NCBI GenBank assembly: GCA_024653945.1 | Contig: JANLIT010000002.1 | Location: 80,255-144,254 of the forward strand | DNA from: Candidatus Campbellbacteria bacterium | Lineage (GTDB): Bacteria > Patescibacteriota > Minisyncoccia > Phycocordibacterales > EsbW-18 | Direction of reading: 5' to 3' | Length of the DNA: 64,000 nucleotides | Part shown: one piece after another, positions 1,785 through 53,033 of the stretch | How positions within the stretch are numbered: the first letter of the stretch is position 1 | Layout: each line of letters starts with the position of its first letter | Position numbers and translations under genes: made by a program | Notes under the pieces: model-generated | What the model was told of the DNA's origin: nothing | Database searches by the model: none | Seen by the model: the letters and a program-made list of their open reading frames with translations, nothing else

Positions 1785-1829
1785 ATATACAATAGGTTAA
1801 TTGGCAATGGTATCCGCATGGTGCGAATT

Positions 1830-1849
1830 CCTGCCTGCCGGCAGGCAGG
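1830..1849. repeat. Perfect 20-bp GC palindrome CCTGCCTGCCGGCAGGCAGG, copy 1 of 2 (26 bp shared with 6636-6655 in inverted orientation)
   Basis: Exact match to 6636-6655, with shared flank AATT-palindrome-CG on opposite sides. It lies 43 bp upstream of the acidic ORF start. Confidence 0.6.
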
Positions 1850-4732: not shown

Positions 4733-6196
4733 ATGAAAGACCTACCAAAAGAAGCGCGGGGGATTGTGGCCCTACTGCAACATAACGGGTACGAGGCGTA
4801 TCTTGTTGGTGGTTGCGTGCGCGACATGTACCTTGATTGCACACCAAAGGATTGGGATGTGACCACAAATGCAAATCCCGAACAAATTCAGGCGCTTTTT
4901 CCACATACTTTTTATGAAAATGAGTACGGAACCGTTGGTGTGGTGAACGATGAAACAGAAGATGCAACACTCAAAGCAATTGAAGTCACGCCATATCGAA
5001 AGGAGAGCGGGTACAGCGACAAACGACACCCAGATAGTGTTTCTTTTGGCACATCTCTTGAAGAAGACCTTGCGCGACGAGATTTTACCATCAACGCATT
5101 CGCGTTTGATACCACAACCAACACACTTGTTGATGTATATGATGGAAAAAAAGATTTGAAGGACAAACTCATCCGCGCGGTTGGTGATGCGGAGAAACGA
5201 TTCAATGAAGATGCACTCCGCATGTTGCGCGCTGTTCGTTTTGCAACGGAATTTGGTTTTGATATTGAAAAAAAGACGTCGGATGCAATTCTCAAACACG
5301 CAGATGACCTCGCACATATATCGGCCGAGCGTATTCGTGATGAATTCACTAAAATGCTTTTGTCAGACAGCCCATTTCGTGGAGTACGGCTTCTCCACGA
5401 ACACAAATTGCTCTCGTACATTGTTCCAGAATTAGAGAAGGGAATTGATGTGGGTCAAAATCAGGCCCATTCTTACACGGTTTTTGAGCACATTGGACGA
5501 ACACTGCAAGCTGCTGCTGATAAAAAATTCTCACTTGAACTTCGTCTTGCGACACTTTTTCATGACATCGCAAAACCACATACAAAAGCGATGGACACAA
5601 AGAAAAATGATTGGTCTTTCCATGGACATGAAGTTGTGGGCTCACGTCTTGCACGCAAACGAATGCAAGAGTTACGTTTTCCAACAGAGATTGTTGAAAA
5701 AGTGACGAAACTTGTTCGATGGCACATGTTTTTCTCCGATACAGAACAAATTACACACTCCGCTGTGCGTCGTCTCATTCGAAATGTTGGTCCAGAGAAT
5801 GTTGAAGATATTTTGAATGTGCGCATCTGTGATCGAATTGGAACAGGACGACCAAAAGAACAACCATATCGTTTGCGTAAATACAAAGCCATGATTGATG
5901 AGGTGCTGCGCGACCCGGTGTCTGTTGGAATGCTTAGTATTGATGGTAAACAGCTTATGGAGCTCCTTGGAGAGCGTCCCGGACCACGTATTGGATGGAT
6001 TCTCCATGCACTCCTTGAAGATGTACTTGATGACCCAACACAAAATACAAAAGAGTATTTGGAAACTCGCGCACAAACACTTGTAAAGCTTCCCGACGCA
6101 GAACTCCGCATACTTGGTGAAAAAGGGAGAGATGCACAGGAAGAAGCTGAGGAAAAAGAAGTTAAAAAAATCCGCTCCAAACATCACGTGGAGTGA
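4733..6196 (+). CDS. cca: CCA-adding tRNA nucleotidyltransferase / poly(A) polymerase family protein with HD domain
   Basis: GGCVRDMYL...DWDVTT nucleotidyltransferase head, RDFTINA motif, and an HD domain (LFHDIAKP...HGHEVVG). Confidence 0.85.
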   Translation: MKDLPKEARGIVALLQHNGYEAYLVGGCVRDMYLDCTPKDWDVTTNANPEQIQALFPHTFYENEYGTVGVVNDETEDATLKAIEVTPYRKESGYSDKRHPDSVSFGTSLEEDLARRDFTINAFAFDTTTNTLVDVYDGKKDLKDKLIRAVGDAEKRFNEDALRMLRAVRFATEFGFDIEKKTSDAILKHADDLAHISAERIRDEFTKMLLSDSPFRGVRLLHEHKLLSYIVPELEKGIDVGQNQAHSYTVFEHIGRTLQAAADKKFSLELRLATLFHDIAKPHTKAMDTKKNDWSFHGHEVVGSRLARKRMQELRFPTEIVEKVTKLVRWHMFFSDTEQITHSAVRRLIRNVGPENVEDILNVRICDRIGTGRPKEQPYRLRKYKAMIDEVLRDPVSVGMLSIDGKQLMELLGERPGPRIGWILHALLEDVLDDPTQNTKEYLETRAQTLVKLPDAELRILGEKGRDAQEEAEEKEVKKIRSKHHVE

Positions 6197-6312
6197 GAAG
6201 AAGCTTGTTAGCTTCGTTAGCTTGTAGCTTATTAGCTTTTTAGTTTGTGGAGAAAACAAAACCTGCCCGAGCCGAAGCTGGGGCAGAAGTGCGTCGCTGT
6301 GGACAGAGAAAG

Positions 6313-6537
6313 CTATCTCTGCCAAACCCGAAGTGCCGGGAATCCGTTCACAGCGTCTAGAGTCATCAGATTACCAGGAGCCGTAACGTAAAGTTCACTC
6401 TCCCGAGTCCTCGCTTGAATCTCCGCGTGTTGGAAGAATCCCCTCAGTGAGGTGGTGGCGGTCTTGTTCATGATGAATACCTCACCAAACGGGTTCACGC
6501 GGACGAGAATGCGACCGTCGTCAAAAACCGTTTTCAT
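6313..6537 (-). CDS. Hypothetical small protein (74 aa)
   Basis: Intact ORF with a strong sigma70-type promoter upstream on the minus strand. No recognisable domain. Confidence 0.4.
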   Translation of the reverse strand: MKTVFDDGRILVRVNPFGEVFIMNKTATTSLRGFFQHAEIQARTRESELYVTAPGNLMTLDAVNGFPALRVWQR

Positions 6538-6589
6538 GACTTTCTCCTCCTGTTTTTTTGAGCACGGTTGCTCGAGAACATTCGGTAGT

Positions 6590-6617
6590 ATTATATTACA
6601 TTTTTTATTATTGTCAA
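6590..6617 (-). promoter_or_regulatory. Sigma70-type promoter (TTGACA-16-TATAAT) for the 6313-6537 gene
   Basis: The minus strand reads TTGACAataataaaaaatgtaaTATAAT. The 20-bp GC palindrome sits 19 bp upstream of the -35. Confidence 0.55.
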
Positions 6618-6635
6618 TATTCTCTAATTCGCACG

Positions 6636-6655
6636 CCTGCCTGCCGGCAGGCAGG
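6636..6655. repeat. Perfect 20-bp GC palindrome, copy 2 of 2
   Basis: Identical to 1830-1849. The flanks show the two copies are mutually inverted (aatt-palindrome-cg is shared). Confidence 0.6.
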
Positions 6656-6702
6656 AATTAGTCCTCTTCCAACTTCCATTATTTTAAATTAAATACGCAT
6701 AC

Positions 6703-6748
6703 GCATATGTGACTTATAGCCACGACCGTGGCTATAAGTCACATATGC
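6703..6748. repeat. 46-bp near-perfect palindrome with 22-bp arms (GCATATGTGACTTATAGCCACG AC CGTGGCTATAAGTCACATATGC)
   Basis: The arms are exact reverse complements around a 2-nt centre. Preceded by tandem ACGCAT ACGCAT. Sits in a ~700-bp noncoding region. Confidence 0.6.
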
Positions 6749-7133
6749 AAAAAGCCGCCCTGAAGTCACGGAACGCAATTCGGTGAAGAATAACCTTCTG
6801 TAACAGTGCAAGACGGCCTTGGCTTAGGATTGCTCGGAGAGAAATCCTTGTGTGGATATGGGGTAAGAAGAGCCTGAACGTATAGACTGGAGGTGCGTAT
6901 GTGGGGCGCACTATTCTCGTGTCTTGTCTTGCGAGACAATTTCACGCAAAACCGTTTGTTGCTTTTTTCCTCAATCCCTATCCTTGGGAAAGAACGAATG
7001 TGTCAGAAAGAGGCAAGGAGATTTGTGTGGGGTATATTTAATTGGGCCCCTTTGCTCTGACTCTGGTAGTAAGTGTAAAGGACATGCATACGAGTGTAAA
7101 GGACAAAAGTGCATAACTCTACTCTTAATGTCC

Positions 7134-7169
7134 TTTACTCAGCACTTAAGAATTTAAGTGCTGAGTAAA
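7134..7169. other. 16-bp stem hairpin (TTTACTCAGCACTTAA-GAAT-TTAAGTGCTGAGTAAA) plus upstream GTAAAGGAC repeats
   Basis: GTAAAGGAC occurs as two direct copies (7073-7106) and one inverted copy that pairs with them. Structured noncoding region 3' of xth. Confidence 0.35.
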
Positions 7170-7180
7170 TGCCGGACATC

Positions 7181-7208
7181 AAAAAACCTTTGTATACAAA
7201 GGTTTTTT
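7181..7208. terminator. Bidirectional rho-independent terminator
   Basis: AAAAAA-CCTTTGTATACAAAGG-TTTTTT, a perfect palindrome with flanking A and T runs. Confidence 0.7.
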
Positions 7209-7218
7209 GGCTTACTAC

Positions 7219-7261
7219 TTTTCCCGACGTTTCAGTCGGGACCCCGACCACAGCGTCGGGG
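7219..7261. repeat. Two-hairpin 46-bp repeat, copy A, abutting the xth stop
   Basis: CCCGACGTTTCAGTCGGG plus ACCCCGACCACAGCGTCGGGG. Copies at 22322-22367 and 24344-24392 (inverted) have a few loop changes (copy C almost identical, copy B three or four differences). Confidence 0.65.
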
Positions 7262-8035
7262 CTACTTACTACTTACTTCTAACCCAACCGGGCAGTGATC
7301 GGAGCCGTACACATCCGAAAGTATTTCTGAACGTTTAATTTTTGGAAGAAGATTTTGAGAAACAATAAAGTAGTCCAATCGCCAACCAATATTTCTATCT
7401 CGTGCGCGAGAAATGGTATCCCAATATGAGTAGGCATTTTTTGTGTCGGGATGAAAATGTCGGAATGTGTCAACAAATCCGGCGGAGAGAACTTCATCCA
7501 TCCACGCGCGTTCTTCTGGCAAAAATCCAACGTGTCCTTCATTTTCTTTCGGTCGAGCAATGTCTATTTCTTCATGCGCGACATTGACGTCACCACAAAA
7601 AATCACCTTTTTGCCATTTTTCCTTAGTTTTTTAATGTGTTCCAAAAATGCGTCATAAAAATCAAGCTTGTACTGAAGCTTTTCTGGAGAACCCCCTCCG
7701 TTTGGAAAATAGACATTCAAAAGTACAAAATCTTCAAAAGCGGCTTCAATAAGACGTCCTTGGGTGTTGAACTTTTCAGGTAACACATCAAAAGAGACAC
7801 TTTTAGGCTCTTTTTTTGAGTACACGGCTACACCACTATATCCTTTTCGTTCTTTTGATGAGTTGAAATAGGCAAAATAACCTTCTGGCTTTTGAACTTC
7901 TGGAGAAAGTTGGCCTTCTTCTACTTTCGTTTCTTGAAGGCAAAAAATATCAGGTTTTTCTTGTTCAAACCAATCCCAATACCCTTGATTAAAGAGTGAG
8001 CGAAGTCCGTTTACATTCCACGAGATAATTCTCAT
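7262..8035 (-). CDS. xth: Exodeoxyribonuclease III (AP endonuclease)
   Basis: MRIISWNVNGLRS...IFCLQETK...GDVNVAHEEIDI...SDHCPV are the ExoIII/EEP signatures. The start is taken at MRIIS; the ORF track extends upstream to 8074. The ATG lies within the left flank of MITE copy c. The last four codons plus stop are encoded by CTACTTACTACTTAC. Confidence 0.85.
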   Translation of the reverse strand: MRIISWNVNGLRSLFNQGYWDWFEQEKPDIFCLQETKVEEGQLSPEVQKPEGYFAYFNSSKERKGYSGVAVYSKKEPKSVSFDVLPEKFNTQGRLIEAAFEDFVLLNVYFPNGGGSPEKLQYKLDFYDAFLEHIKKLRKNGKKVIFCGDVNVAHEEIDIARPKENEGHVGFLPEERAWMDEVLSAGFVDTFRHFHPDTKNAYSYWDTISRARDRNIGWRLDYFIVSQNLLPKIKRSEILSDVYGSDHCPVGLEVSSK

Positions 8036-8154
8036 CCCGTTAGAGATAGGAAATGCGGGGCATTTCCGTATCATGTTTATCTTTCTTTAAAAATTCGACC
8101 ATGTTTTTAATTCTCCACACATCGCCCGTTCAAAACTGAGAGATCTCTAACGGG
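8036..8154. repeat. MITE-like inverted-repeat element, copy c (119 bp)
   Basis: Termini CCCGTTAGAGATAGG ... GAGATCTCTAACGGG. Flanks are TTCTCAT and ACTCAT (shared CTCAT). There is an internal hairpin GGAAATGCGGGGCATTTCC. It starts immediately after the xth ATG. Confidence 0.6.
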
Positions 8155-8297
8155 ACTCATACAATGATTGTATCCAGCACTAAACGTTTCTCCAAATGCA
8201 CTGGAGCATTTAGTGCTGGATGTACTTTCTGATACAATACACGTGCTTATAACATTATTATTTAAATACATTTGGAGGTCTGGCCTCCCAAAAACAT

Positions 8298-13666: not shown

Positions 13667-13794
13667 TTCCTTGCACGCAAGGACTGCAAAATATCAAATA
13701 CCAAATGACAAACAATCCTGTTATCATTTGGATTAAGGTCGTTGAATTTTTTTGATATTTGTTATTTGAACTTTGTAATTTATTTTAAATATTT

Positions 13795-14334
13795 ATGACC
13801 ATAATCAAACAGAAGGCACAGCGTGTTGCCGTTTTTATCGACGCGCAAAATCTCTATCATAGTGCACGACATCTCTACAGCGCTCGCGTTAATTTCGCAG
13901 CAATCGTTAAGGATGCAATAGGGGAGCGACCGCTCATTCGTGCAATCGCATACGTTATTTCTACCGAATCAGGTGAAGAAAAAACATTTTTTGAAGCTCT
14001 TACCAAAATGGGTATTGAGGTAAAAACAAAAGATTTACAAATTTTTGCAGGAGGCGCTAAGAAAGCTGACTGGGATGTTGGACTTGCTATGGACGCAGTG
14101 AAACTCGCACCAAAGTTGGATGCCGTTGTCATTGTGTCTGGAGACGGAGACTATGTTCCGCTCGTTGAGTACTTGCAGATTAGCCAAGGATGTCAGGTGG
14201 AAGCCATCGCATTCGGACGCTCAACATCTGCAAAACTCATTGAAGCCGCAGACCACTTCACCAATCTTGATGACGATCCCCGCAAGTACCTCATGGGGTA
14301 CCGCGGACGAAATGAGAGAAAAAATGTCAAATAG
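13795..14334 (+). CDS. NYN-domain protein (LabA/DUF88-like)
   Basis: VAVFIDAQNLYHSARH...AIAYV...VVIVSGDGDYVPLVEYLQ is the NYN/LabA motif set. Confidence 0.7.
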   Translation: MTIIKQKAQRVAVFIDAQNLYHSARHLYSARVNFAAIVKDAIGERPLIRAIAYVISTESGEEKTFFEALTKMGIEVKTKDLQIFAGGAKKADWDVGLAMDAVKLAPKLDAVVIVSGDGDYVPLVEYLQISQGCQVEAIAFGRSTSAKLIEAADHFTNLDDDPRKYLMGYRGRNERKNVK

Positions 14335-14340
14335 CAAATA

Positions 14341-14393
14341 GTAGAAAGTAGAAGGTAGAAGGTAGAAAGTAGTAAGTAGAAGGTGGTAAGCAA
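14341..14393. repeat. Low-complexity (AGTAGAAAG/GTAGAAG)n tract
   Basis: agtagaaagtagaaggtagaaggtagaaagtagtaagtagaaggtggtaagc. Its reverse complement belongs to the (TACTTN)n motif class seen at many gene ends in the window. Confidence 0.6.
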
Positions 14394-20141: not shown

Positions 20142-20230
20142 TTGACAAATATTATTATTTATGTATAATGGAGTTTGGACATACCCAACCCGAGTATTCC
20201 ACTTGAGTTGGTTCGAGAACGGGGGGAAAA
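20142..20230 (+). promoter_or_regulatory. Promoter (TTGACA-16-TATAAT) plus conserved leader hairpin of small-membrane-protein cassette 1
   Basis: TTGACAaatattattatttatgTATAAT, then TACCCAACCCGAGtattccaCTTGAGTTGG, a 9/10-bp stem. It is homologous to 29099-29192. Confidence 0.55.
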
Positions 20231-20490: not shown

Positions 20491-20630
20491 CAAAACGTAG
20501 CCCCGCCTCTTACAAGAGGCGGGGCTACTTACCACTTATTTTTTATAGTTGTATAAAAAAGACCAAACTGGTATTGTCTCGGCAGAGTTGTTCGTTGACA
20601 GGGTAACACTACCCAGAAAGGGACTGGTTT

Positions 20631-22220
20631 ATGAACAATGGTGTCCGCAGATTCGTTTTGTTGGTTTTGGTGGCGTCGCTTTTTCTGATGCAACCCGCCG
20701 TTGCACAAGTGCCGACGGTAACGCCAACACTGACGTTCAACAATCCACTGATTCACCCGTTCGGCCAGCACGTGCTTCACCGAGACGGATGGGACCGCTA
20801 CTTGATGTATTTTTCTATCAACAGTGCGGTACGACACGGAAAGCCTGTTGGTGAAGACTTCACACCCGGCGATTCTGGCACGTACAATACTGCGTGTCAT
20901 ACGTGGTGGGCAGATCGCATTTGGCTCACGTGGAGCTTCGGCGACGGAAAAGACCCATCGGGTTGGAATCAGAATGATGGATACGGAAATACTCCGCCCA
21001 TTTTACTTCTCAACATCGGGGGTCAAGACATCGACGGTGATGGTGTCATGGAGTATGAGGGAGTCGGTGAGCAGGCACTCATCGGCGATCCGTATGTGGT
21101 CTACTGGAACAATCAGTGGCACATGTACTATGAAGGAACCTCAAACTGTGACACGAGCGACGGCATGCTCTTCCACGCAACGGCCGACCACTGGTTCGGT
21201 CCATGGATAAAGAGGGGTCCTGTGAATGGACTTCTCGGCTCTCATGCAAATAGTGGATTGGCGTGGGCAACTGTTTTGCTTGATGAGGGTAACCTCTATC
21301 TGTACTACACGGACGGCAACGTGAGTCTGCGCGCGGCCACGGCATCTGACACCACCGGCCAGAACTTTGTATCTCAAACGATTCCGGTCATTGGACAAAT
21401 GATGTCTCGTGGACATGTGGTAAAAGTGCCTGGAGGCTACAAACTCATCTACGATCTCTTTGTTGGTCTTCCGGTTGTTACTGAAATGCGGTCATCGTTC
21501 TCGATGAATCGATTTTCTTTCCCCGTTGGAGTGAAGATACTCTCCTCAAAGCCCGACTACTTCGGATTTTCCGACACAGGTATGGGGCTACCAACATACT
21601 TGAAAGTTGGAAACGAGGAGCGGGTATATTTCACTGGCCACACGTATTCAGAATCACAGTGGCCGGGTTGGGAGGTCTCGCAAATATGCGTTGCTGTTTT
21701 GGGAACGCAAATTGAGCGACTCTCAAACGGTGGTTTTGAAACAATCACAGCAAACACCAACACTGCTCCTGATGGCTCGTGGATGCGGTACCGATACACA
21801 GGTACCAACTCCAACGTCCTCGTGGCAAACTCTGGAGTTGCCCGTAGTGGAGCTGATAGTGTCCGCCTTGGTGTCAATAACTCGTCGTCGCAGACACTTG
21901 ATCACGTGGCGATAGTAATTCCTGCAAACGCGACGAGTGCGATTCTTAGTTTCTGGTTGTCGGTTGCAACGAGCGAAACTGGCACAACTGCCACGGACAC
22001 TCTCAGTGTGAAGATTGCAAACGCAACTGGCACAGGCACGCTGGGAACGGTGCTCACGTTCAGTAATCGGAGCAATCCAAACGAGGGGTACTTTTTGAAA
22101 GCAGTTGATGTAACGAGATTCCGTGGACAAACCGTCAGGGTTCGATTTATCGGAGCAAACAACTCGACGAGACCTACAGAATTTCGAATTGACGACGTGA
22201 GTCTTACATCAGATGAATAG
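20631..22220 (+). CDS. Secreted protein with a beta-propeller glycoside-hydrolase-like core and a C-terminal beta-sandwich (CBM-like) domain
   Basis: Signal peptide RRFVLLVLVASLFLMQPAVAQ. DPYVVYWNNQWHMYYEG is GH43/GH32-like. The C-terminal LSNGGFE...RVRFIGAN...FRIDDVSL looks like a carbohydrate-binding-type module. Assignment is tentative. Confidence 0.5.
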   Translation: MNNGVRRFVLLVLVASLFLMQPAVAQVPTVTPTLTFNNPLIHPFGQHVLHRDGWDRYLMYFSINSAVRHGKPVGEDFTPGDSGTYNTACHTWWADRIWLTWSFGDGKDPSGWNQNDGYGNTPPILLLNIGGQDIDGDGVMEYEGVGEQALIGDPYVVYWNNQWHMYYEGTSNCDTSDGMLFHATADHWFGPWIKRGPVNGLLGSHANSGLAWATVLLDEGNLYLYYTDGNVSLRAATASDTTGQNFVSQTIPVIGQMMSRGHVVKVPGGYKLIYDLFVGLPVVTEMRSSFSMNRFSFPVGVKILSSKPDYFGFSDTGMGLPTYLKVGNEERVYFTGHTYSESQWPGWEVSQICVAVLGTQIERLSNGGFETITANTNTAPDGSWMRYRYTGTNSNVLVANSGVARSGADSVRLGVNNSSSQTLDHVAIVIPANATSAILSFWLSVATSETGTTATDTLSVKIANATGTGTLGTVLTFSNRSNPNEGYFLKAVDVTRFRGQTVRVRFIGANNSTRPTEFRIDDVSLTSDE

Positions 22221-22268: not shown

Positions 22269-22321
22269 ATTTCCCAAAACGAAGTCCCGCCTCTTGTAAG
22301 AGGCGGGGCGTTTCTATTTTC

Positions 22322-22367
22322 TTTTCCCGACGTTTCGGTCGGGACCCCGACCGTAGCGTCGGGGCTA
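22322..22367. repeat. Two-hairpin 46-bp repeat, copy B
   Basis: CCCGACGTTTCGGTCGGG plus ACCCCGACCGTAGCGTCGGGG, followed by CTACTTACTAC. Confidence 0.65.
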
Positions 22368-22445
22368 CTTACTACATTCTACTTATTATTTTCTTATTCT
22401 TTTTTGAGTTTTGGATTTCACATTTTAGTTTTATACTATTCATAT

Positions 22446-23977: not shown

Positions 23978-24340
23978 ATGACACACATAACCGATGAGCA
24001 ACTAGCTCACTTCAAACAAGTATTAACCGACGAAAAGACGCGCCTTGAAAGCGAGCTTTCAAACGTAGGTATTAAAAATCCAAACAAAGCAGGGGATTGG
24101 TCACCTGTCGTCGACGAAGCTATTGACGCTTCAACTTCAGACAAAAACGAACTTGCAGACAAATTTGAGGATTTGGAAGAAAATACTGCTATTTCAGACA
24201 CACTTGAGATGCAACTCAAAGAAGTTGCTGACGCACTCGCACGAATTGAAAACGGCACGTATGGAGTAGATGAAAATACAAATGAACCAATTCCTGTTGA
24301 CCGCCTCGAAGCAAATCCTTCAGCACGAACGAATATTTAA
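23978..24340 (+). CDS. DksA/TraR-family protein with a degenerate (Cys-less) zinc finger
   Basis: The C-terminus LARIENGTYGVDENTNEPIPVDRLEANPSARTNI parallels IENGTYG.CE.CG..I...RL.A.P.A..C of DksA/YocK, but all four Cys positions are replaced. Confidence 0.5.
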   Translation: MTHITDEQLAHFKQVLTDEKTRLESELSNVGIKNPNKAGDWSPVVDEAIDASTSDKNELADKFEDLEENTAISDTLEMQLKEVADALARIENGTYGVDENTNEPIPVDRLEANPSARTNI

Positions 24341-24343
24341 ATA

Positions 24344-24392
24344 GTAGCCCCGACGCTATGGTCGGGGTCCCGACTGAAACGTCGGGAAAAGT
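24344..24392. repeat. Two-hairpin 46-bp repeat, copy C (inverted orientation), immediately 3' of the DksA-like stop
   Basis: The reverse complement reads CCCGACGTTTCAGTCGGG plus ACCCCGACCATAGCGTCGGGG. Confidence 0.65.
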
Positions 24393-24437: not shown

Positions 24438-24448
24438 GACGAAAGAAC

Positions 24449-24835
24449 TTAGTAATCTCGTCTATGACGCTCGTCATAGCTCGCGAAGATGCTGTGCCAA
24501 TCAAAAACAACTTCCTCCAACAAAAGTAGAAGGTCATTCTTGGAAGGGTGGTTGTGAATGTAATTTTCTTCCCCACACACAGGGCAACGAACATGACACA
24601 CACCCACCCCGGAAGGAGTCCAATAATCACCTCCAGAGCAACTAAAAGGTGAAACATAATTCATCTTCTGAATGAATGCCCACTGGTGGAGGGGTCGACG
24701 ACTGTTACACCTCTGACACTTAAAGTTGAATTTGCGAGCAATGTTGAGCTTCTTGGAGCGCGCTTCCCTAAGAGCTTCGTTGAGTCGCCTCTCTTCTGCG
24801 TTGACCTCTCTAAACAACTTCGCAACGTTGGTCAT
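24449..24835 (-). CDS. Hypothetical zinc-ribbon protein
   Basis: CQRCNS...CHVRCPVCGEE Cys pairs. The start is taken at MTNVAKLF. Confidence 0.4.
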   Translation of the reverse strand: MTNVAKLFREVNAEERRLNEALREARSKKLNIARKFNFKCQRCNSRRPLHQWAFIQKMNYVSPFSCSGGDYWTPSGVGVCHVRCPVCGEENYIHNHPSKNDLLLLLEEVVFDWHSIFASYDERHRRDY

Positions 24836-24957
24836 GTGTGTCTCCTTAGCAAGCAACAAATCTATCGCGAGTGTATACGCTCACTACCACATAGTCAATT
24901 TAAAAAGAAGCCCGCCATTCTTTGAAAGAATGGCGGAGTTTTTTGGTGCTGTGTTGT

Positions 24958-25200
24958 TCAACCGTCAGAATCGTACCAAATAAGTTCATTTTGGTCTAAG
25001 GGCGGTGGAATAATCTTCGCGCCCTTGCGGTAATCTTCTAGAGTTATACCAACCATTACGCGCAACGTTCCGTCGTGTTGTACAACAATGTCAATTCTCA
25101 GAAACGAGAGGTCTCTCTGAGACAGTTGCCACGCAATCTGTTCGGCAATCTGCTCTTGGTTCATGGGACCGACGACCACATCAACCAGTCCATCTTTCAT
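24958..25200 (-). CDS. Hypothetical protein (80 aa)
   Basis: Intact ORF. No recognisable domain. Confidence 0.35.
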   Translation of the reverse strand: MKDGLVDVVVGPMNQEQIAEQIAWQLSQRDLSFLRIDIVVQHDGTLRVMVGITLEDYRKGAKIIPPPLDQNELIWYDSDG

Positions 25201-25264
25201 GATTTCTCCTTTCGAGTCTGTACGAATCTACACAAAACATACTCGCAAGATACATTACTGTCAA

Positions 25265-25373
25265 TTTTTCTTTCTACTTTTTACATACTACTGATTTTAT
25301 CCTTGGTATTTGTTTCGAATTTCGATATTCGGATTTTCATTGGTTATTGTTACTTGGCCCTTGGTTATTCCAA
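25265..25373 (+). repeat. ~110-bp upstream repeat, copy 1 (homologous to 29781-29890), containing a tandem (ATTTCG)n-like tract
   Basis: TTTTTCTTTCTACTTTTTACATACTACT...TTTCGAATTTCGATATTCGGATTTTCATTGGTTATTG..TTGG..TTATT aligns with 29781-29890. It ends ~40 bp before the comM GTG start. Confidence 0.6.
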
Positions 25374-29098: not shown

Positions 29099-29192
29099 TT
29101 GACAAATACTATAATTCGTATATAATAGCGTCTGAATGTACCCAACCCGAGCATTTCGCTTGAGTTGGCTCAAAAACAAGGGGAGATGTCCC
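29099..29192 (+). promoter_or_regulatory. Promoter (TTGACA-16-TATAAT) plus conserved leader hairpin of small-membrane-protein cassette 2
   Basis: TTGACAaatactataattcgtaTATAAT, then TACCCAACCCGAGcatttcgCTTGAGTTGG, ending in SD GGGGAG. It is homologous to 20142-20230. Confidence 0.55.
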
Positions 29193-29984: not shown

Positions 29985-31946
29985 ATGCACTACCTTGAAA
30001 GCCTCAATCCTGCACAAAAACGAGCTGTTTCACATACTGACGGTGCTCTTATGATTATTGCTGGTGCCGGGACAGGAAAGACACGCGTCATAACCACCCG
30101 CATACTCCACCTTATTAATAGTGGTGTCCTTCCCGAGAAGATTCTCGCCATTACCTTCACCAATAAAGCGGCGACCGAGATGCGCGAACGGGTTGGACAT
30201 CTCCTTGGAACCGACCTACATACCAGCTACCACATACCAGCTACCACCTCTCCTTTTGTGGGAACCTTTCATTCCCTCGGTGTCAAAATCTTGCGAGAAA
30301 ATGTGACACGTCTTGGTGTGACAAAGTACTTCACCATTTTTGACCGCGATAATTCTCTTTCGGCAATCAAACGAATTGTAAAAGACCTCGGATTAGATCC
30401 CAAACAACATTCACCAAACGCATTTCTCTCCGTTATTTCAAAAAACAAAGGCGAGGCAACAACACTTTCAAAGTTTAAGGAAAAAAGTGGGCTCAACTAT
30501 TTTGAGCGACTCGTTGTTCCTGTGTGGGAGAAATACGCCGAGGTGCTTACAAAAGAAAAAGCATTTGATTTTGATGATTTACTTCTTTCTACATTGGAAC
30601 TCCTCAAAAAGAATCCAGATATTCTTGAACACTACCAGAAGCGTTGGTCACACATTCACGTTGATGAGTATCAAGACACCAACACGGTGCAGTATGAACT
30701 CACCAAACTACTCGCGAGCGGACATGGGAATATTTGTGTTGTCGGTGACCACGACCAATGCATTTACACATGGCGAAGTGCCGACATGCGCAATCTCGCG
30801 CGATTTGAAAAAGATTTCTCCCACGTAACAGTTGTGATGTTGGAAGAAAATTATCGTTCAACACAAACAATTCTCTCTGCAGCAAATAGCGCCATCGCAC
30901 AAAATGAATTTAGAAAAGAAAAGAATTTGTTTACTAACAGTGCTGATGGAGCAAAAATAGAACTCTACACTGCGGCAAATGAAAATGACGAAGCAATGTG
31001 GATTGCTGCGCGTGCTGCAGAATTAATTGCGTCTGGTACTCCCGCAAACGAAATCGCCGTGTTGTTTCGTGCAAACTTTCAGTCACGCGTACTTGAAGAA
31101 GCGTTTCTCAACACGCACGTACCATACCAAATGCTTGGTGTACGTTTTTTTGAACGAAAAGAGGTGAAGGATATTCTCTCGTACATTATTGCCGCACTTA
31201 ATCCAGACAGCACAACCGCTATTTCTCGAATTATAAATGTTCCAGCGCGCGGTATTGGAAAAACAACACTCCTTAAAATTCTTTCATACCAAGAACATGA
31301 CTTGCCAGCAAAGATGAAAGAAAAGATTGAACGATTTCGTGCGCTACTTGGACGCATTGCGGAATACACCCACACACACAAACCATCCGAGGTAGTTAAA
31401 TTTGTCATCAAAGAAAGTGGAATTGAATTAGACCTCATACATGGAGGTGATGACGACATTGAACGTCTCGCCAACATGAAAGAGCTCGCCACACTCGCGG
31501 TGCGATATGACACTCTTCCACCAGAAGAGGGCGTCTCAACATTTTTGGAAAACGCATCACTGGCAAGTGATCAAGACGCACTCCGCAATGACGAATCATC
31601 GGTGAAACTTATGACCATTCACGCTGCAAAAGGGCTTGAATTTGCTCATGTTTTTATTTCTGGTCTTGAAGAGGGGCTCTTTCCCGATGAACGAAGTGAG
31701 ACGCGCGAAACACCCGAGGAACGCGAGGAGGAACGCCGACTTTTTTATGTTGCACTCACACGTGCACGACACCAAGCACATCTTTCGTACGCATTTATCC
31801 GCACCATTTTCGGAACACCAACCATCAACACACCGTCACGATTTATAACTGAAATGGATAGTGAGCTTGTGGAAGATGTTACCCCTACAAATGAGTGGAA
31901 ACCCCAAGGAGGTTTTGGAAAAGGCCTTTTGGATATAGATTTTTAA
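29985..31946 (+). CDS. pcrA: UvrD/PcrA-family ATP-dependent DNA helicase carrying an in-frame low-complexity insertion
   Basis: Walker A AGAGTGKT, motifs TFTNKAA, VDEYQDTN, and the C-terminal helicase domain. The start is taken at MHYLESLNPAQKRAV; the upstream in-frame extension in the ORF track is low-complexity. An insert DLHTSYHIPATTSP is encoded by tandem CATACCAGCTACCA. Confidence 0.85.
   Translation: MHYLESLNPAQKRAVSHTDGALMIIAGAGTGKTRVITTRILHLINSGVLPEKILAITFTNKAATEMRERVGHLLGTDLHTSYHIPATTSPFVGTFHSLGVKILRENVTRLGVTKYFTIFDRDNSLSAIKRIVKDLGLDPKQHSPNAFLSVISKNKGEATTLSKFKEKSGLNYFERLVVPVWEKYAEVLTKEKAFDFDDLLLSTLELLKKNPDILEHYQKRWSHIHVDEYQDTNTVQYELTKLLASGHGNICVVGDHDQCIYTWRSADMRNLARFEKDFSHVTVVMLEENYRSTQTILSAANSAIAQNEFRKEKNLFTNSADGAKIELYTAANENDEAMWIAARAAELIASGTPANEIAVLFRANFQSRVLEEAFLNTHVPYQMLGVRFFERKEVKDILSYIIAALNPDSTTAISRIINVPARGIGKTTLLKILSYQEHDLPAKMKEKIERFRALLGRIAEYTHTHKPSEVVKFVIKESGIELDLIHGGDDDIERLANMKELATLAVRYDTLPPEEGVSTFLENASLASDQDALRNDESSVKLMTIHAAKGLEFAHVFISGLEEGLFPDERSETRETPEEREEERRLFYVALTRARHQAHLSYAFIRTIFGTPTINTPSRFITEMDSELVEDVTPTNEWKPQGGFGKGLLDIDF
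30213..30252 (+). repeat. In-frame tandem 14-mer (CATACCAGCTACCA x2) inside pcrA
   Basis: Positions 30218-30231 and 30232-30245 are identical, and identical to intergenic 27747-27760. Confidence 0.65.
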
Positions 31947-32007: not shown

Positions 32008-32808
32008 ATGGCACACCGTGCAAAAAAAGAACTTGGACAAAATTTTTTGAAATCTAAACTTGCGATTAGCAAAATCGTTGAAGTGGCTTCCTTATCCGCA
32101 ACAGACACCGTTCTTGAAATTGGACCAGGCAAGGGAGCACTTACACGAGCACTCCTTGATACTGGATGCACTGTTATTGCAATTGAAAAAGATGGTGAAC
32201 TTATTGTATTGTTGCAAAAAACTTTTGCAGAAGAGATTGCATCAAAAAAACTAACACTGATTCAAGGCGACATTCGCACTGTTGATTTTTCTCATTACCT
32301 GCTACAAGCTACGAGCTACAAGCTCATTGCCAACATTCCCTACTACATCACGGGAGAAATTTTAGAATTATTTCTTGAACACGGACCACAACCAGAACGC
32401 ATTGTGGTACTTGTACAAAAAGAAGTTGCACAACGAATTGTAGCACGTGATAAAAAAGAAAGTATTCTCTCACTGTCGGTGAAAGCGTATGGCACACCGA
32501 AGATTGTGATGAATGTGTCAAAGAAATATTTTTCTCCTGCACCAAAAGTTGATTCGGCCGTGTTGTGCATTTCAGATATTTCAAAAAAGAAATTTGCAGG
32601 TGGTGATGAAAAGAAATTTTTTACACTCGTCAAAGCTGGCTTCGCACACAAACGAAAACAACTCGTCCCGAATCTTGCGAGCCTGGTACCAAAAGAAACG
32701 CTTTCGCGTTTCTTGACGGAGCACGGACACTCCGCGAGGGAGCGTGCGGAGGAATTGTCGGTTGATGATTGGCTTGCGTTATCTCAAACTACAAATCCGA
32801 CCCTGTAA
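32008..32808 (+). CDS. rsmA: 16S rRNA (adenine1518-N6/adenine1519-N6)-dimethyltransferase
   Basis: GQNFL, SAM-binding VLEIGPGKGALT, and NIPY motifs. The start is taken at MAHRAKKELGQNFL. Confidence 0.85.
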   Translation: MAHRAKKELGQNFLKSKLAISKIVEVASLSATDTVLEIGPGKGALTRALLDTGCTVIAIEKDGELIVLLQKTFAEEIASKKLTLIQGDIRTVDFSHYLLQATSYKLIANIPYYITGEILELFLEHGPQPERIVVLVQKEVAQRIVARDKKESILSLSVKAYGTPKIVMNVSKKYFSPAPKVDSAVLCISDISKKKFAGGDEKKFFTLVKAGFAHKRKQLVPNLASLVPKETLSRFLTEHGHSARERAEELSVDDWLALSQTTNPTL

Positions 32809-40445: not shown

Positions 40446-41108
40446 GTGGTGGTTAATATAGTACATTGTATGAACGAAGAATCTCAAAAAATCATCAAAG
40501 AAAAATTTGCCCAGCTTCCTCCTGCTTTACAAAAAGCATTTACGGAGATTGATCTTTTGGGTCGTGTGCGAAATATCATAACCAAAAATAATCTGCGAGT
40601 GGACGACGGGGGGTTGTTTGAGGATGAGGTTATGTTTATATTACTTGGTTTAGAGCATCCAAATAACTTTATTGCGAACCTTACCACCCGACTGCATGTT
40701 CCCCTTATCACTATTGAAAAACTTGTTATTGATGTAGAGAAGGAAGTTTTTCTTCCTGTGAGAGAGTCCTTGATGAAGATGTTTCCAACTGGGGAACACG
40801 GAGCAACCCCCGAAAAACTACCTGTCGCACCAGCAACGTCTCAACAACACTCCCCAACCGTTATCTACCCGCAAAAACCCGCCGTACAAGCACCAGTATC
40901 ACAAGCGGTACCTCCTGCAAATCTTCCAATCACACCACAACCACAGACAGCCCCTGGACTAACCCGCACACTTCCAAAAGATATTGTACAAACAAAACTT
41001 GAACAAAGTTTCCGCATGCCTCCAACAACGACAACCATTAAAGAAAGTACGCCACCAACACCTGTGACACAAAAGGTGGTAGATCCGTACCGCGAACCAA
41101 CTGAGTGA
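40446..41108 (+). CDS. Hypothetical protein with a Pro/Thr/Gln-rich C-terminus (alternative start at 40470)
   Basis: The ORF track starts at GTG 40446. The first ATG (MNEESQK) is at 40470. Confidence 0.4.
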   Translation: MVVNIVHCMNEESQKIIKEKFAQLPPALQKAFTEIDLLGRVRNIITKNNLRVDDGGLFEDEVMFILLGLEHPNNFIANLTTRLHVPLITIEKLVIDVEKEVFLPVRESLMKMFPTGEHGATPEKLPVAPATSQQHSPTVIYPQKPAVQAPVSQAVPPANLPITPQPQTAPGLTRTLPKDIVQTKLEQSFRMPPTTTTIKESTPPTPVTQKVVDPYREPTE

Positions 41109-47180: not shown

Positions 47181-48425
47181 ATGAAAAAAATTGTTATTTT
47201 TATAATCGTATTTGTTGTCGCTCTTTTTTTGGCAGGGAGTGTGTGGTGGTTTTTTACGAAAAATGATTTAGCAACGACGGGAGACGGTACACAACAGGGA
47301 ACTCAAACATTTAACCCGTTTGGACTTTTTGGAGACATCACACCAATACGTCCCAGCGCAACGAGCACAGACGGACAAACACCCGACACTGGTGTACAAC
47401 AAAAAAAGTTTCTTACCGCTATTTCTGAAAAAGTAGTTGCTGGTTCCACATTTGCCATCATTACACATGGCACCTCTACCGATATGTTGGTGCGTTATGT
47501 TGAACGAGAAACAGGACACATTTTTGACTACTCACTTTCAACGGGGCTTACGACTCGTATTTCAAACACTACCGTTCCTCGCGTTCGTGAGGCATTGTGG
47601 GGAAACAACGCTTCAACCGTTGCGTTACGCTATCTTACTGAGGACGGTTCTATAGAAACATTTTTAGGAACCATTGCAACATCAAGCGCAAATTTGGACA
47701 ACGGATCACTTCTATCTGGATCATTCCTGCCAAAAGACATTGTATCTCTTTCTATTCACCCAACACTTCCAAAAACTTTTTATCTTACAAAAACAAATGC
47801 TGGTGGTGTTGGGTATGTTTTGAGTGAAAAAATTACAAAAAGTGTGTTTTTACACCCTTTTTCACAATGGCAAACCTCGTGGAGTGGAGCATCGTCCGTT
47901 CTTTTAACAACGGCACCGTCCTCTCAATCTAACGGAAACGCTTTCTTGCTTAACACAACAACGAAGACCTTTGACCGCATCGCCAGCAGCACGACCGCAT
48001 TAACAGCACACCCTTCTCCAGACGGATTGCGTGTTCTTTTTGGATCCGTAGGACAAGCCGGTATGCGACTCTTTATATATGATGTTATGAAAAAACAAAG
48101 AACCGCACTTTCTTTCAGCACGCTTCCAGAAAAATGTGCGTGGGTAGGGGCGGGAACCCTGTATTGCGCCATTCCTGATATTCAAATTCAAACAGGGCTT
48201 CCTGATGTGTGGTATCAAGGTGTTGTGTCGTTTTCTGACGAGCTTTGGAAAATTGATACACAAACAGGAAATGCAACATTCATTTTCGACCCACACGACA
48301 CAATTTCCGGTGGTGCCGACATGATTGATATAGGGGTGAGTGCTGGTGGAGGGTTTCTTTCATTCACAAATAAAAAAGACGGCCGGCTGTGGCTCGTTGA
48401 TTTTTCCGCCCAACCCGTAGAATAA
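47181..48425 (+). CDS. Hypothetical N-terminally anchored protein (414 aa), possibly beta-propeller-like
   Basis: N-terminal TM helix. Ser/Thr-rich. Last gene of the cluster before the bidirectional terminator. Confidence 0.4.
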   Translation: MKKIVIFIIVFVVALFLAGSVWWFFTKNDLATTGDGTQQGTQTFNPFGLFGDITPIRPSATSTDGQTPDTGVQQKKFLTAISEKVVAGSTFAIITHGTSTDMLVRYVERETGHIFDYSLSTGLTTRISNTTVPRVREALWGNNASTVALRYLTEDGSIETFLGTIATSSANLDNGSLLSGSFLPKDIVSLSIHPTLPKTFYLTKTNAGGVGYVLSEKITKSVFLHPFSQWQTSWSGASSVLLTTAPSSQSNGNAFLLNTTTKTFDRIASSTTALTAHPSPDGLRVLFGSVGQAGMRLFIYDVMKKQRTALSFSTLPEKCAWVGAGTLYCAIPDIQIQTGLPDVWYQGVVSFSDELWKIDTQTGNATFIFDPHDTISGGADMIDIGVSAGGGFLSFTNKKDGRLWLVDFSAQPVE

Positions 48426-48441: not shown

Positions 48442-48479
48442 AAAAAGATGGACTTCTAAATTAGAAGTCCATCTTTTTG
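48442..48479. terminator. Bidirectional terminator between the T4SS-like cluster and yidC
   Basis: AAAAAGATGGACTTCTA...TAGAAGTCCATCTTTTT. Confidence 0.7.
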
Positions 48480-48483
48480 CTTG

Positions 48484-49218
48484 CTACTTACTACTTACTA
48501 CTTTTTCCGTATCCAATTTCTTTCGTATCATTCCTTCTTGTGCAATTGAAAAAAGGTTGCTTGTTGTCCAGTACAGAGCGACACTTGCTGGGAGTGCGTA
48601 TGAAATAAACACAATGATGACAGGGAAGACATATTTCATTTGGAGTGACATACTTTTTGCAAAATCTGCACCAAACCCCTTTTTACTTCCAACCTCTGGC
48701 GCCTTCATAAAGTACGCTTGAAAAAATTGAGAAACACCAGCAAGAACGGCTAGGGGTATGCTTTTTTGAGCAACATCAAGAAATCCAAGAAACATTGTTG
48801 AAATAGAACCTGGGTTTGATACAAATGAGTACAGAAAATCGGGGTGAATTTCAGGTAATCCTGTACGCACAAACATGTAATACAGCCCAAAAATAATGGG
48901 AATTTGGACAAGGAGAAAGAAGATACTTGCAAAAGGATTTACCTTATATGCCTTATACAGCTTCATCGTTTCCTGTGCTTGTCTGGCTGAATCATTTTTA
49001 AACTTTGTACGCACCTCATCCATCGCGGGCTGAATATTTTGCATTGCCATCTGTGTTCGAAGCGCTTTTTGTGCAAGAGGAAAGAGAATAAATCGTACGA
49101 TAACCGTAAAGACAACAACAATCACACCCAGGTCCGCCCACGGAAGTGCGTGCATGAGAATTACAACACCGTTGTAGAGAGGTTGTGTAACGAGTGTAAA
49201 GAAAAAACCTTGAGACAT
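48484..49218 (-). CDS. yidC: Membrane protein insertase YidC/Oxa1 family (short form)
   Basis: Five TM helices with the conserved Oxa1/YidC core (PLAQKALRTQMAMQNIQP...VNPFAS). The C-terminal ...VVSSK* is encoded by CTACTTACTACTTAC. Confidence 0.85.
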   Translation of the reverse strand: MSQGFFFTLVTQPLYNGVVILMHALPWADLGVIVVVFTVIVRFILFPLAQKALRTQMAMQNIQPAMDEVRTKFKNDSARQAQETMKLYKAYKVNPFASIFFLLVQIPIIFGLYYMFVRTGLPEIHPDFLYSFVSNPGSISTMFLGFLDVAQKSIPLAVLAGVSQFFQAYFMKAPEVGSKKGFGADFAKSMSLQMKYVFPVIIVFISYALPASVALYWTTSNLFSIAQEGMIRKKLDTEKVVSSK

Positions 49219-52935: not shown

Positions 52936-52945
52936 GTGTATTTAT

Positions 52946-53031
52946 CCCGTTAGAGAATACCCCGTAGCAAACCACGGGGCTTATGTTGTACGAGCGCGGG
53001 GTCTAGTCCCCCGTGTAAGTTCTCTAGCGGG
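52946..53031. repeat. MITE-like inverted-repeat element, copy e (86 bp)
   Basis: CCCGTTAGAGAATACCCCGTAGC ... TTCTCTAGCGGG, with an internal CCCCGTAGCAAACCACGGGG hairpin. Flanked by ATTTAT and ACTTAT. It ends 3 nt before the stop of the minus-strand PBP gene. Confidence 0.55.
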
Positions 53032-53033
53032 AC

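Follow-up and report, generated by a model that had tools for sequence, protein, structure and literature searches.

Heptamer tracts and a 40-nt hairpin element as two probably independent repeat phenomena at the 3' end of xth in a Candidatus Campbellbacteria genome

Members of the Candidate Phyla Radiation (CPR; Patescibacteria) have tiny, streamlined genomes that are thought to hold few mobile elements. In 64,000 nt of one such genome, that of a Candidatus Campbellbacteria bacterium (GenBank assembly GCA_024653945.1, contig JANLIT010000002.1, positions 80,255 to 144,254 of the forward strand; this whole stretch is referred to below as the window), the genes xth and yidC end in the same four residues and stop codon, VSSK-TAG, and the stop codon of xth directly adjoins a repeat made of two GC-rich hairpins. 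Did the repeat bring the shared tail with it, as an earlier note made from the letters of this DNA had suggested, or do tail and repeat have separate origins? We conclude, with a probability of roughly 0.8, that two kinds of repeat, independent of each other, have met at this locus: tandem tracts of 7-nt units (heptamer tracts) and a discrete 40-nt hairpin insertion element.

The two genes, their terminators and the tracts that encode their last residues are arranged as follows.

7262..8035, minus strand: xth, exodeoxyribonuclease III (PF03372), with the open reading frame (ORF) open to 8074
7181..7208, minus strand: intrinsic terminator of xth, AAAAAACCTTTGTATACAAAGGTTTTTT, conserved in a sister genome
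7262..7279, minus strand: (GTAAGTA)n tract coding V-S-S-K-stop of xth, with a continuation, AAAGTAGTAAGCC, beyond the hairpin element at 7209-7221
48484..49218, minus strand: yidC (PF02096)
48480..48503, minus strand: (GTAGTAA)3.4 tract coding V-V-S-S-K-stop of yidC, with no hairpin element
48442..48478, strand not assigned: terminator hairpin 3' of yidC, common to the convergent gene 47181..48425

Xth ends in GLEVSSK-TAG and YidC in EKVVSSK-TAG, both read from the same 15-mer, CTACTTACTACTTAC, which occurs exactly twice in the window (at 7262 and 48484; shuffle expectation 0); with at most one mismatch allowed, an 11-mer is found 17 times against 0.42 expected. The shared ending described in the earlier note thus stands, and a chance origin of the 15-mer from base composition is refuted by the shuffles. 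The comparison of orthologues proposed in the same place bears out that the tail is specific to this lineage: VSSK ends none of the 119 other Xth homologues among the matches listed, in which GSDHCP is followed by 5-7 variable residues to the C-terminus, and none of the 59 other YidC homologues inspected. YidC tails vary among the nearest relatives (THNG, EVEKK, ALQLAQKN).

The identity of the two tails follows from the length of the tract unit. Because 7 is coprime to 3, a stop-bearing unit such as GTAGTAA puts stops in all three frames. Each of the seven entry phases of (GTAGTAA)n reads VVSSK, VSSK, SSK, SK or K followed by two stops, or else stops immediately, so that any ORF entering the tract ends in a suffix of VVSSK and two stops. 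The two genes share VSSK-TAG because both abut one tract type; their identical tail is the forced outcome of heptamer arithmetic, not convergent recoding. In the complete Campbellbacteria genome CP064977, the yidC orthologue has a different tract at this site, (AACATNT)n, and accordingly a different tail, THNG. Tract and element can occur apart, as yidC in the window has the former without the latter.

At xth, the separation can be followed in a sister genome (locus L046, xth 85% identical) that lacks the element. There the gene ends GGG ATA GAG ATT GGT GGT TAG TAG, followed by AAAGTGGCAAGG and the terminator; the minus strand of the window reads GGG TTA GAA GTA AGT AGT AAG TAG, followed by CCCCGACGCTGTGGTCGGGGTCCCGACTGAAACGTCGGGA, AAAGTAGTAAGCC and the same terminator. 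The sequence that lies before the shared terminator, 3' of the TAG in the sister and of the element in the window, is AAAGTGG in the former and AAAGTAG in the latter. In this alignment, VSSK-TAG appears as the codon-for-codon homologue of the sister's IGG-TAG-TAG; the first sister-type stop would have become AAG, and translation of xth would now end at the second TAG. Judged from this empty site, the tract and its terminal TAG are older than the element, which entered after the existing TAG as a 40-nt insert without duplication and left the Xth protein unchanged. In a more distant relative (L048), xth ends VELVL-TAA without a tract. Copy A of the element does end just before the xth stop, as the earlier note had it (last base of the hairpin core 7261, stop codon 7262-7264), the whole of 7209-7283 reading GGCTTACTACTTT-T-CCCGAC-GTTTCA-GTCGGG-A-CCCCGAC-CACAGC-GTCGGGG-CTACTTACTACTTACTTCTAA. 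The proposal that repeat DNA recodes gene 3' ends therefore survives for the heptamer tracts, which have shaped the tails of xth, yidC and an NYN-domain gene, and is to be given up for the hairpin element at xth.

The element has three copies in the window.

7222..7261, minus strand: copy A, CCCCGAC-GCTGTG-GTCGGGG-T-CCCGAC-TGAAAC-GTCGGG-A, directly 3' of the xth stop codon
22325..22364, minus strand: copy B, after two terminator hairpins of gene 20631..22220 and ~85 nt upstream of a membrane-protein ATG at ~22448
22365..22403, plus strand: degenerate CTACTTA-type T-rich tract beside copy B
24348..24387, plus strand: copy C, 7 nt past the TAA of the DksA-like gene 23978..24340 (TAA ATAGTAG^) and before its terminator

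All three near-identical copies reported earlier were recovered, although the inserted unit, CCCCGAC-N6-GTCGGGG-T-CCCGAC-N6-GTCGGG-A, measures 40 nt and not 46; the low-complexity flanks are likewise present, with a period of 7 (CTACTTA) instead of the period of 6 assumed in (TACTTN)n. A 39-nt core recurs at 7223-7261 (+), 22326-22364 (+, 3 mismatches) and 24348-24386 (-, 1 mismatch), with 0 expected by chance. Each copy consists of two CCCGAC-N6-GTCGGG hairpins with 6-7-bp stems and 6-nt loops, for which RNA folding predicts -27 to -31.5 kcal/mol (z = -3.8 to -6.0). The sequence of loop 1, GYTTYR, returns in loop 2 as its reverse complement, YRAARC, making the element an inverted dimer of one hairpin unit (19-20 nt), with the units 1 nt apart. 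We also considered folding into a single long 20-bp hairpin. Loop complementarity was 2.88, against 3.46 ± 0.11 for random pairings, and 13 of the 126 unique copies collected (see below) are perfect palindromes; as the loops are not more complementary than random pairings, two hairpins are favoured over one. A CRISPR remnant, an attC or dif site and a DNA-uptake sequence were rejected on sequence features alone (no arrays, other core motifs, copy number far too low). The Rfam gathering search of the whole window returned five tRNAs only, E-value mode over 6150-7300 gave only sub-threshold chance hairpin matches, and a literature search found no papers containing the element junction sequences.

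The insertion sites of all three copies read ...AGTAG^AAAG.... At the DksA-like gene, the window has TAA-ATAGTAG-[40 nt]-AAAGTAG-AAAGCAA-terminator, and the sister loci L052 and L053 have TAA-ACAGTAG-GCAGTAG-ATAGAAG-terminator without the element; the related contig L057 carries a copy in the same gene neighbourhood as copy B. No target duplication is seen at the two sister-genome empty sites or at the tRNA-defined sites described below (at least 12); the insert is exactly 40 nt and contains no CTACTT.

The heptamer tracts are far more numerous than the element. A self-match scan found 18 period-7 tracts in the window against 0.2 per shuffle (an enrichment of ~90-fold) and 12 period-14 tracts against 0.4; each of the other periods from 4 to 15 gave at most 4 tracts against 0.2-0.8, at or modestly above background. 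Tandem Repeats Finder agreed, with 19 period-7 and 9 period-14 rows against ~0.9 and ~0.3 per Markov shuffle. The units are diverse (GTAGTAA, GTAGAAA, CAAATGA, CATGTAG, TAGCTTG, TTTCGAA, ATTGGTT, ACATACC), and most tracts lie between stop codon and terminator, in about a dozen genes (cca, xth, S15, NYN, pnp, dksA-like, comM, the ORF6N gene, the M23 peptidase gene, 40446..41108, yidC). At the same sites in sister genomes the tract is absent or shorter, most running directly from stop codon to terminator, and the tracts are thus recent in this Campbellbacteria lineage. Further tracts bear on coding sequence or stand upstream of genes.

14321..14390, plus strand: tract of CAAATAG and then GTAGAAA/GTAGAAG units, from the NYN gene to its terminator, overlapping the last 3 codons
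19194..19231, plus strand: (AAATNAC)n tract inside pnp, in a variable loop
29779..29965, plus strand: five different tracts (TTTCTAC, TTTCGAA, ATTGGTT, CTTACTA, TTTGNTA) upstream of uvrD

The tract has rewritten the tail of the NYN-domain gene (13795..14334) to ERKNVK-stop, compared with ERKRPPQEQK-stop in a sister genome. In PNPase, the loop carries an insertion of 6-7 residues relative to two relatives (ISNDKSQIAK vs NAKR), and the loops encoded by heptamer or 14-mer tracts in uvrD (30218-30250) and ksgA (32294-32330) are of the same length as in relatives, with wholly different sequence. Anything said here of the origin and function of the tracts is inferred. That they act as all-frame stop pads is a weak hypothesis: most 3'-untranslated tracts carry TAG, TGA or TAA on the sense strand, the exceptions being AAATATC units, which have no stops, and the blocks upstream of uvrD and comM, which are antisense.

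Several observations stand beside the tracts. Upstream of the NYN gene, (AAATAYC)n at 13685-13716 and (TTTGWTA)n at 13748-13783 face each other; being complementary, they could pair as a long imperfect hairpin. Some 0.9 kb between the dksA-like terminator and comM (24440-25300) has no equivalent in sister genomes, in which 77-124 nt separate the two genes. On its minus strand are two ORFs, of 136 and 80 aa, neither matching Pfam above cut-off, and after them come TTTCGAA and ATTGGTT tracts. A terminator-like palindromic hairpin, GCCCCGCCTCTTACAAGAGGCGGGGC, occurs twice (20500-20546 and 22283-22309), and its 20500 copy is followed directly by CTACTTACCAC, so that a GTAG/CTAC-type tract also adjoins a different GC-rich hairpin.

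To place the element beyond this genome, we searched 185,579 species genomes (596 Gb) with the pattern CCCGAC-N6-GTCGGG-N-CCCCGAC-N6-GTCGGGG, which has 26 fixed bases and a chance expectation far below 1. It matched 45 loci in 30 assemblies, all of them Patescibacteria or unclassified metagenome-assembled genomes (MAGs), and at least eight named Patescibacteria candidate lineages share it (Saccharibacteria, Kaiser-, Nomura-, Moran-, Wolfe-, Adler- and Jorgensenbacteria, Paceibacterota/Parcubacteria and Minisyncoccia are represented). Strict-pattern copies number 1-7 per assembly, with 3 in the 64-kb window. After 80 of 95 matching metagenome stretches had been taken in, 126 unique copies were available, of which 29 are symmetric and 97 asymmetric; no copy was found in viral contigs. 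The flank 5' of the insertion is nAR^ (A at -2 in 83%, G or A at -1 in 90%), and on the opposite flank a T or C completes the stem. The stop of a long ORF lies within 40 nt of the element in 80 instances for the 126 copies (45 head-side, 35 tail-side; some copies between convergent genes count twice), and in 9 of these the stop codon abuts the element (6 TAG, 3 TAA), as it does at xth.

The claim that the repeat can enter coding sequence, which does not hold for xth, holds for the element family in other CPR genomes. In-frame copies there always read PDxxVGxPTxxSG (13 residues), and their hosts are EF-G (twice), RecR, SSB, YbeY, trigger factor, a DUF2914 membrane protein and ribosomal protein L3. 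They occupy the region between the HhH and Toprim domains in RecR, the tail linker in SSB, a linker in trigger factor and the last 14 codons in L3. The two EF-G copies (L002 5044-5082 and L096 1436-1474) share one site, just before KYRFN-IDTPGH, in opposite orientation (VGTPT vs VGVPT), and EF-G of L027 is without the insert; the pair represents either independent hits at one hotspot or inversion of the palindrome in place.

The most sharply defined sites lie in tRNA genes. At least 12 loci have nt 1-10 of a tRNA (...TAG), then the element, then CTCA(A/G)T, and the same tRNA starts intact 64-345 nt downstream; the intact copy supplies the uninterrupted ...TAG^CTCA..., which places the insertion point in the D-arm between nt 10 and 11. 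Eleven copies lie within 30 nt of a tRNA, compared with 2.8 expected and a maximum of 10 in 2000 permutations. Among 86 neighbouring ORFs, GIY-YIG (PF01541; best E = 3e-16) is the commonest Pfam family. In L007, L056, L094 and L128, an ORF of ~88 aa of this family begins 12-28 nt after the element, and in L007 this ORF terminates at the TAG with which the restored tRNA supplies it; in L114, a degenerate version lies between two element copies. Of 17 co-resident copies, five have a GIY-YIG ORF within 100 nt (1.7 expected, P ~0.015), and all five show the order tRNA nt 1-10, element, GIY-YIG ORF, intact tRNA. The cassettes in which nt 1-10 of a tRNA, a palindrome, a GIY-YIG ORF of ~88 aa and an intact tRNA follow one another are these.

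L007 2850-3300, L056 850-1260, L094 1050-1460, L128 900-1389: ~88-aa GIY-YIG cassettes
L114 700-1330, L085 7100-7300, L042 3900-4010: further ~88-aa GIY-YIG cassettes

Variant hairpin pairs are found in other GIY-YIG cassettes (L104, L140, L010), and some 11-12 of 18 GIY-YIG ORFs in the CPR loci examined adjoin tRNA genes, an arrangement suggestive of a homing cassette directed at tRNA genes. Against the group I intron endonuclease model TIGR01453 the proteins score below cut-off only, and we found no paper linking Patescibacteria to GIY-YIG/tRNA cassettes or to the transposon-like systems discussed below (REP/RAYT). In the L034 cassette, the hairpin pair is replaced by the palindrome CCTGCCTGCCGGCAGGCAGG, which interrupts the duplicated tRNA 5' fragment upstream of the ORF. 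This perfect 20-nt palindrome also occurs in the window (1829-1848 and 6637-6656) and at L012 1731, L132 7556, L034 7130 and L097 712; it is a candidate second CPR-wide element, its architecture in L034 matching that of the 40-nt hairpin pair.

The identity, boundaries, distribution, flank preference, in-frame copies and tRNA architecture of the element are read directly from its copies. It enters immediately 3' of TAG, more rarely of TAA or NAG, and duplicates no target sequence, its most exactly defined target being the tRNA D-arm, ...TAG^CTCA..., between nt 10 and 11. GTAG-rich tracts and stop codons supply such sites, which is why all three window copies lie in tracts beside gene ends. How the element moves we infer. 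The hairpins, the absence of duplication and the short 5' sequence recall HUH/Y1 chemistry (REP-RAYT, IS200/IS605). The ~88-aa GIY-YIG gene is the one protein neighbour that recurs. Because the element forms the upstream border of the GIY-YIG tRNA cassettes, mobilisation in trans by the ~88-aa GIY-YIG nuclease is favoured, though unproven. A fuller scheme is tentative and may well turn out wrong: the 40-nt pair would be the non-autonomous form of an autonomous ~0.35-kb cassette that adds the minimal ~88-aa nuclease. Such a cassette, entering tRNA genes between nt 10 and 11, would itself carry the nt 1-10 that make the tRNA whole again; its nuclease would attack hairpins once these are extruded, as structure-specific enzymes of the GIY-YIG type do; and hairpin-only copies would spread in trans to TAG^ sites at stop codons, in heptamer tracts and in loops of essential proteins. 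By analogy with REPs of E. coli, a hairpin 0 nt past the xth stop could affect termination or the 3' stability of the mRNA.

Several points weigh against these conclusions. At xth, the step from IGG-stop-stop to VSSK-stop needs 5 changes in 15 nt and could reflect replacement of the tract, not point substitution. Away from tRNA sites the target consensus is weak; of the 97 asymmetric copies, only 17 have GTAG. For a REP family, strict-pattern copies are few. Several orthologous positions are occupied in different genomes (three times upstream of rpmG; 3' of rplT, dnaJ and efp; in the vicinity of glyA and thrS), and vertical retention or a function in the host could explain this in place of repeated transposition. 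The GIY-YIG association comes from a handful of loci, some of them short, that were chosen for containing the element. The window has no GIY-YIG or transposase gene and no mobilising enzyme was identified; Pfam searches of window-specific ORFs and of ORFs between tRNAs returned nothing mobile (TfoX_N, UPF0102, HU, S15, ORF6N and YebC were matched). No transposase family, Y1_Tnp included, is among the matches listed for the 86 neighbouring ORFs (25 of 87 families). A phmmer search with E. coli RayT (NC_000913.3) against 8,179 ORF segments from 1.12 Mb around the copies gave no credible match, the sole one (E = 0.016) being a spurious low-complexity ORF; the sensitivity of this search is limited, and it covers the surroundings of the copies, not whole genomes.

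Of the alternatives, the one that survives best is that the element belongs to an ordinary family of repetitive extragenic palindromic (REP) sequences or of their hairpin-forming doublets (REPINs; Bertels & Rainey 2011, PMC3116915), moved by a REP-associated tyrosine transposase (RAYT; Y1/HUH) encoded elsewhere in the genome. Much of the architecture is as it would be in such a family: GTAG-tagged REPs form inverted dimers just after ORFs, their tag supplies a TAG stop and some copies are intragenic (Di Nocera et al. 2013, PMC3733652), and here too we see an inverted dimer of GC-rich hairpins, GTAG beside the stem in all three window copies and in the symmetric copies, a TAG of the tag serving as stop codon, no target duplication, and intragenic copies. 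However, the tag or a close variant is found in >90% of GTAG-REP members (PMC3733652) and in far fewer of our asymmetric copies, the surroundings of the 126 copies yielded neither a RayT homologue nor a listed Y1_Tnp match, strict-pattern copies are few where such families have tens to hundreds per genome, and both tRNA D-arm targeting and GIY-YIG adjacency are foreign to REPs. REP-RAYT membership thus fails on two testable defining features, conservation of the GTAG tag and the RAYT, typically a single-copy gene with the repeats on its flanks, and we consider it unlikely.

Still less probable is that the double hairpin is a host-selected motif (an mRNA 3' stabiliser, a modulator of translation termination or a protein-binding site) that is inherited vertically and not mobile. 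The frequent proximity to long-ORF stops, the recurrence at orthologous positions, the stable stems, the presence of the element stem in ordinary terminators (for example in L054) and the known action of REPs as RNA elements (PMC3733652) would all suit such a role, but a vertically inherited motif accounts poorly for clean presence/absence differences between sister genomes, for copies that interrupt tRNA fragments and tRNA genes, for in-frame copies in essential proteins in either orientation, and for a patchy distribution across CPR classes with near-identical sequence. Exaptation of some copies remains compatible with mobility.

The single module proposed in the earlier note, in which the hairpin repeat together with CTACTTACTAC / CTACTTAC transposes into gene 3' ends and brings VSSK-stop with it, is hardly tenable. 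CTACTT-type flanks at all three hairpin copies and the lineage specificity of both tails had made it attractive; yet yidC has tract and tail without the element, the sister genome L046 has tract and TAG at the xth site without it, with codons in one-to-one correspondence, the inserted unit of exactly 40 nt contains no CTACTT, and the flanks beyond this genome are mostly non-heptamer, tRNA genes included. Chance through base composition, for which the low-complexity look of the flanks and nothing else speaks, can be dismissed, as shuffles expect 0 for the 15-mer, the 39-mer and the hairpins, period 7 is heavily enriched, and all 45 loci fall in one phylum or in unclassified MAGs.

Other features of the window are recorded here. 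The start codon of xth is probably Met14, at 8035, which would give 257 aa as in orthologues, and directly upstream of it lies an arm of a further repeat. Inverted pairs of ATCCCGTTAGAGA...TCTCTAACGGGA(T/C), 33-95 nt apart, are found at 1945-2005, 8034-8156 and 52944-53033, with a solo copy at 2499-2518, and the minus-strand arm of the second abuts the likely xth start codon as TCTCTAACGGG-ATG at 8035. Three Campbellbacteria genomes share a conserved noncoding block of ~380 nt between the xth terminator and cca (window 6757-7135, minus strand; L046 10830-11215; L048 10790-11180). Repeats of the box GTCCTTTA(C/T)A, one of which is palindromic, stand at its start and the terminator GGGCGGCTTTTTGC at its end; with no Rfam match even in E-value mode, it is a candidate noncoding RNA or regulatory region. 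Finally, an 86-nt repeat (20142-20227 and 29099-29184, 78% identity) has a promoter of consensus sequence (TTGACA-17-TATAAT) as well as a leader hairpin, ACCCAACCCGAG...CTTGAGTTGG, that is conserved. A small ORF lies downstream of each copy, and the repeat may represent either a cis-regulatory leader or a paralogous small-gene cassette.

On the reading we prefer, two independent repeat phenomena that meet at xth, each has its own significance. The element would serve to trace recent genome dynamics in organisms that are not in culture, would account for errors of annotation (extended ORFs, split tRNAs, odd protein inserts) and would offer a tractable entry to a transposition mechanism that is possibly GIY-YIG-based. 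The heptamer tracts show that expansion of short tandem repeats can rewrite C-termini and loops within one lineage.

As to known systems, the tracts are closest to the cyanobacterial short tandemly repeated repetitive (STRR) sequences, heptamer repeats that Mazel et al. are said to have described in 1990, reportedly with the units CCCCAGT, TTGGTCA and CAACAGT. They also resemble the TAACTGA direct repeats of Beggiatoaceae, Cyanobacteria and Bacteroidetes, whose function is unknown (MacGregor 2015, PMC4679880). Common to all are 7-nt tandem units, many per genome and mostly intergenic near gene boundaries, and the TAACTGA repeats, like the tracts here, carry stop triplets. The differences are that the units here are other and far more varied (only ATTGGTT/ATTGGTC resembles TTGGTCA), that the tracts lie mainly in the interval from stop to terminator and not immediately before start codons, and that they occur in a CPR lineage and are largely missing at the same sites in sister genomes. 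The heptamer-repeat phenomenon of cyanobacteria and Beggiatoa is thereby extended to a third, very distant group.

For the element, the nearest likeness is to GTAG-REPs and REPINs, with which it shares a short (20-40 bp) GC-rich stem-loop in two inverted units, a position mostly 3' of ORFs, a flanking TAG that may double as the stop codon of the gene before it, occasional copies within ORFs and the absence of target-site duplication. It differs in that GTAG accompanies 3/3 copies in the window but only the minority given above across the family, in the 1-nt distance between units, in the low number of its strict-pattern copies, with RAYT not found near copies, in its restriction to Patescibacteria, a phylum outside REP surveys, and in its base-precise preference for tRNA nt 10|11 together with GIY-YIG adjacency. 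Membership in the miniature inverted-repeat transposable elements fails, as these are expected to have terminal inverted repeats plus a target-site duplication, and the element has no duplication. Like IS200/IS605 (HUH/Y1) elements, which enter 3' of a fixed tetra- or pentanucleotide, it inserts 3' of a short specific sequence, leaves its target unduplicated and is built of hairpins, the structure recognised in such systems; unlike them, it consists of two hairpins only, has a loose nAR^ target outside tRNA genes and came without a TnpA in our searches.

Rickettsia palindromic elements (RPEs), reportedly described by Ogata et al. in 2000 and mentioned also in PMC3733652, offer a parallel for the in-frame copies: in both cases a palindromic repeat is tolerated in frame in conserved, even essential, genes of a reduced genome, where it lengthens loops, linkers or tails by a short peptide. 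RPEs are, however, ~100-150 bp long, confined to Rickettsia and, by description, unrelated in sequence, whereas the element is 40 nt long and belongs to Patescibacteria. SegB of phage T4, reportedly a free-standing GIY-YIG homing endonuclease in tRNA gene clusters, provides the closest counterpart of the cassettes, with a GIY-YIG gene beside or within tRNA genes and the flanking tRNA sequence duplicated or restored. The CPR proteins differ from SegB-type enzymes in having ~88 aa, a catalytic domain without a DNA-binding domain, and cassettes bordered by a GC-rich palindrome; if the autonomous/non-autonomous GIY-YIG scheme is true, the miniature transposable elements of bacteria would gain a new mechanistic class, one that is specific to Patescibacteria.

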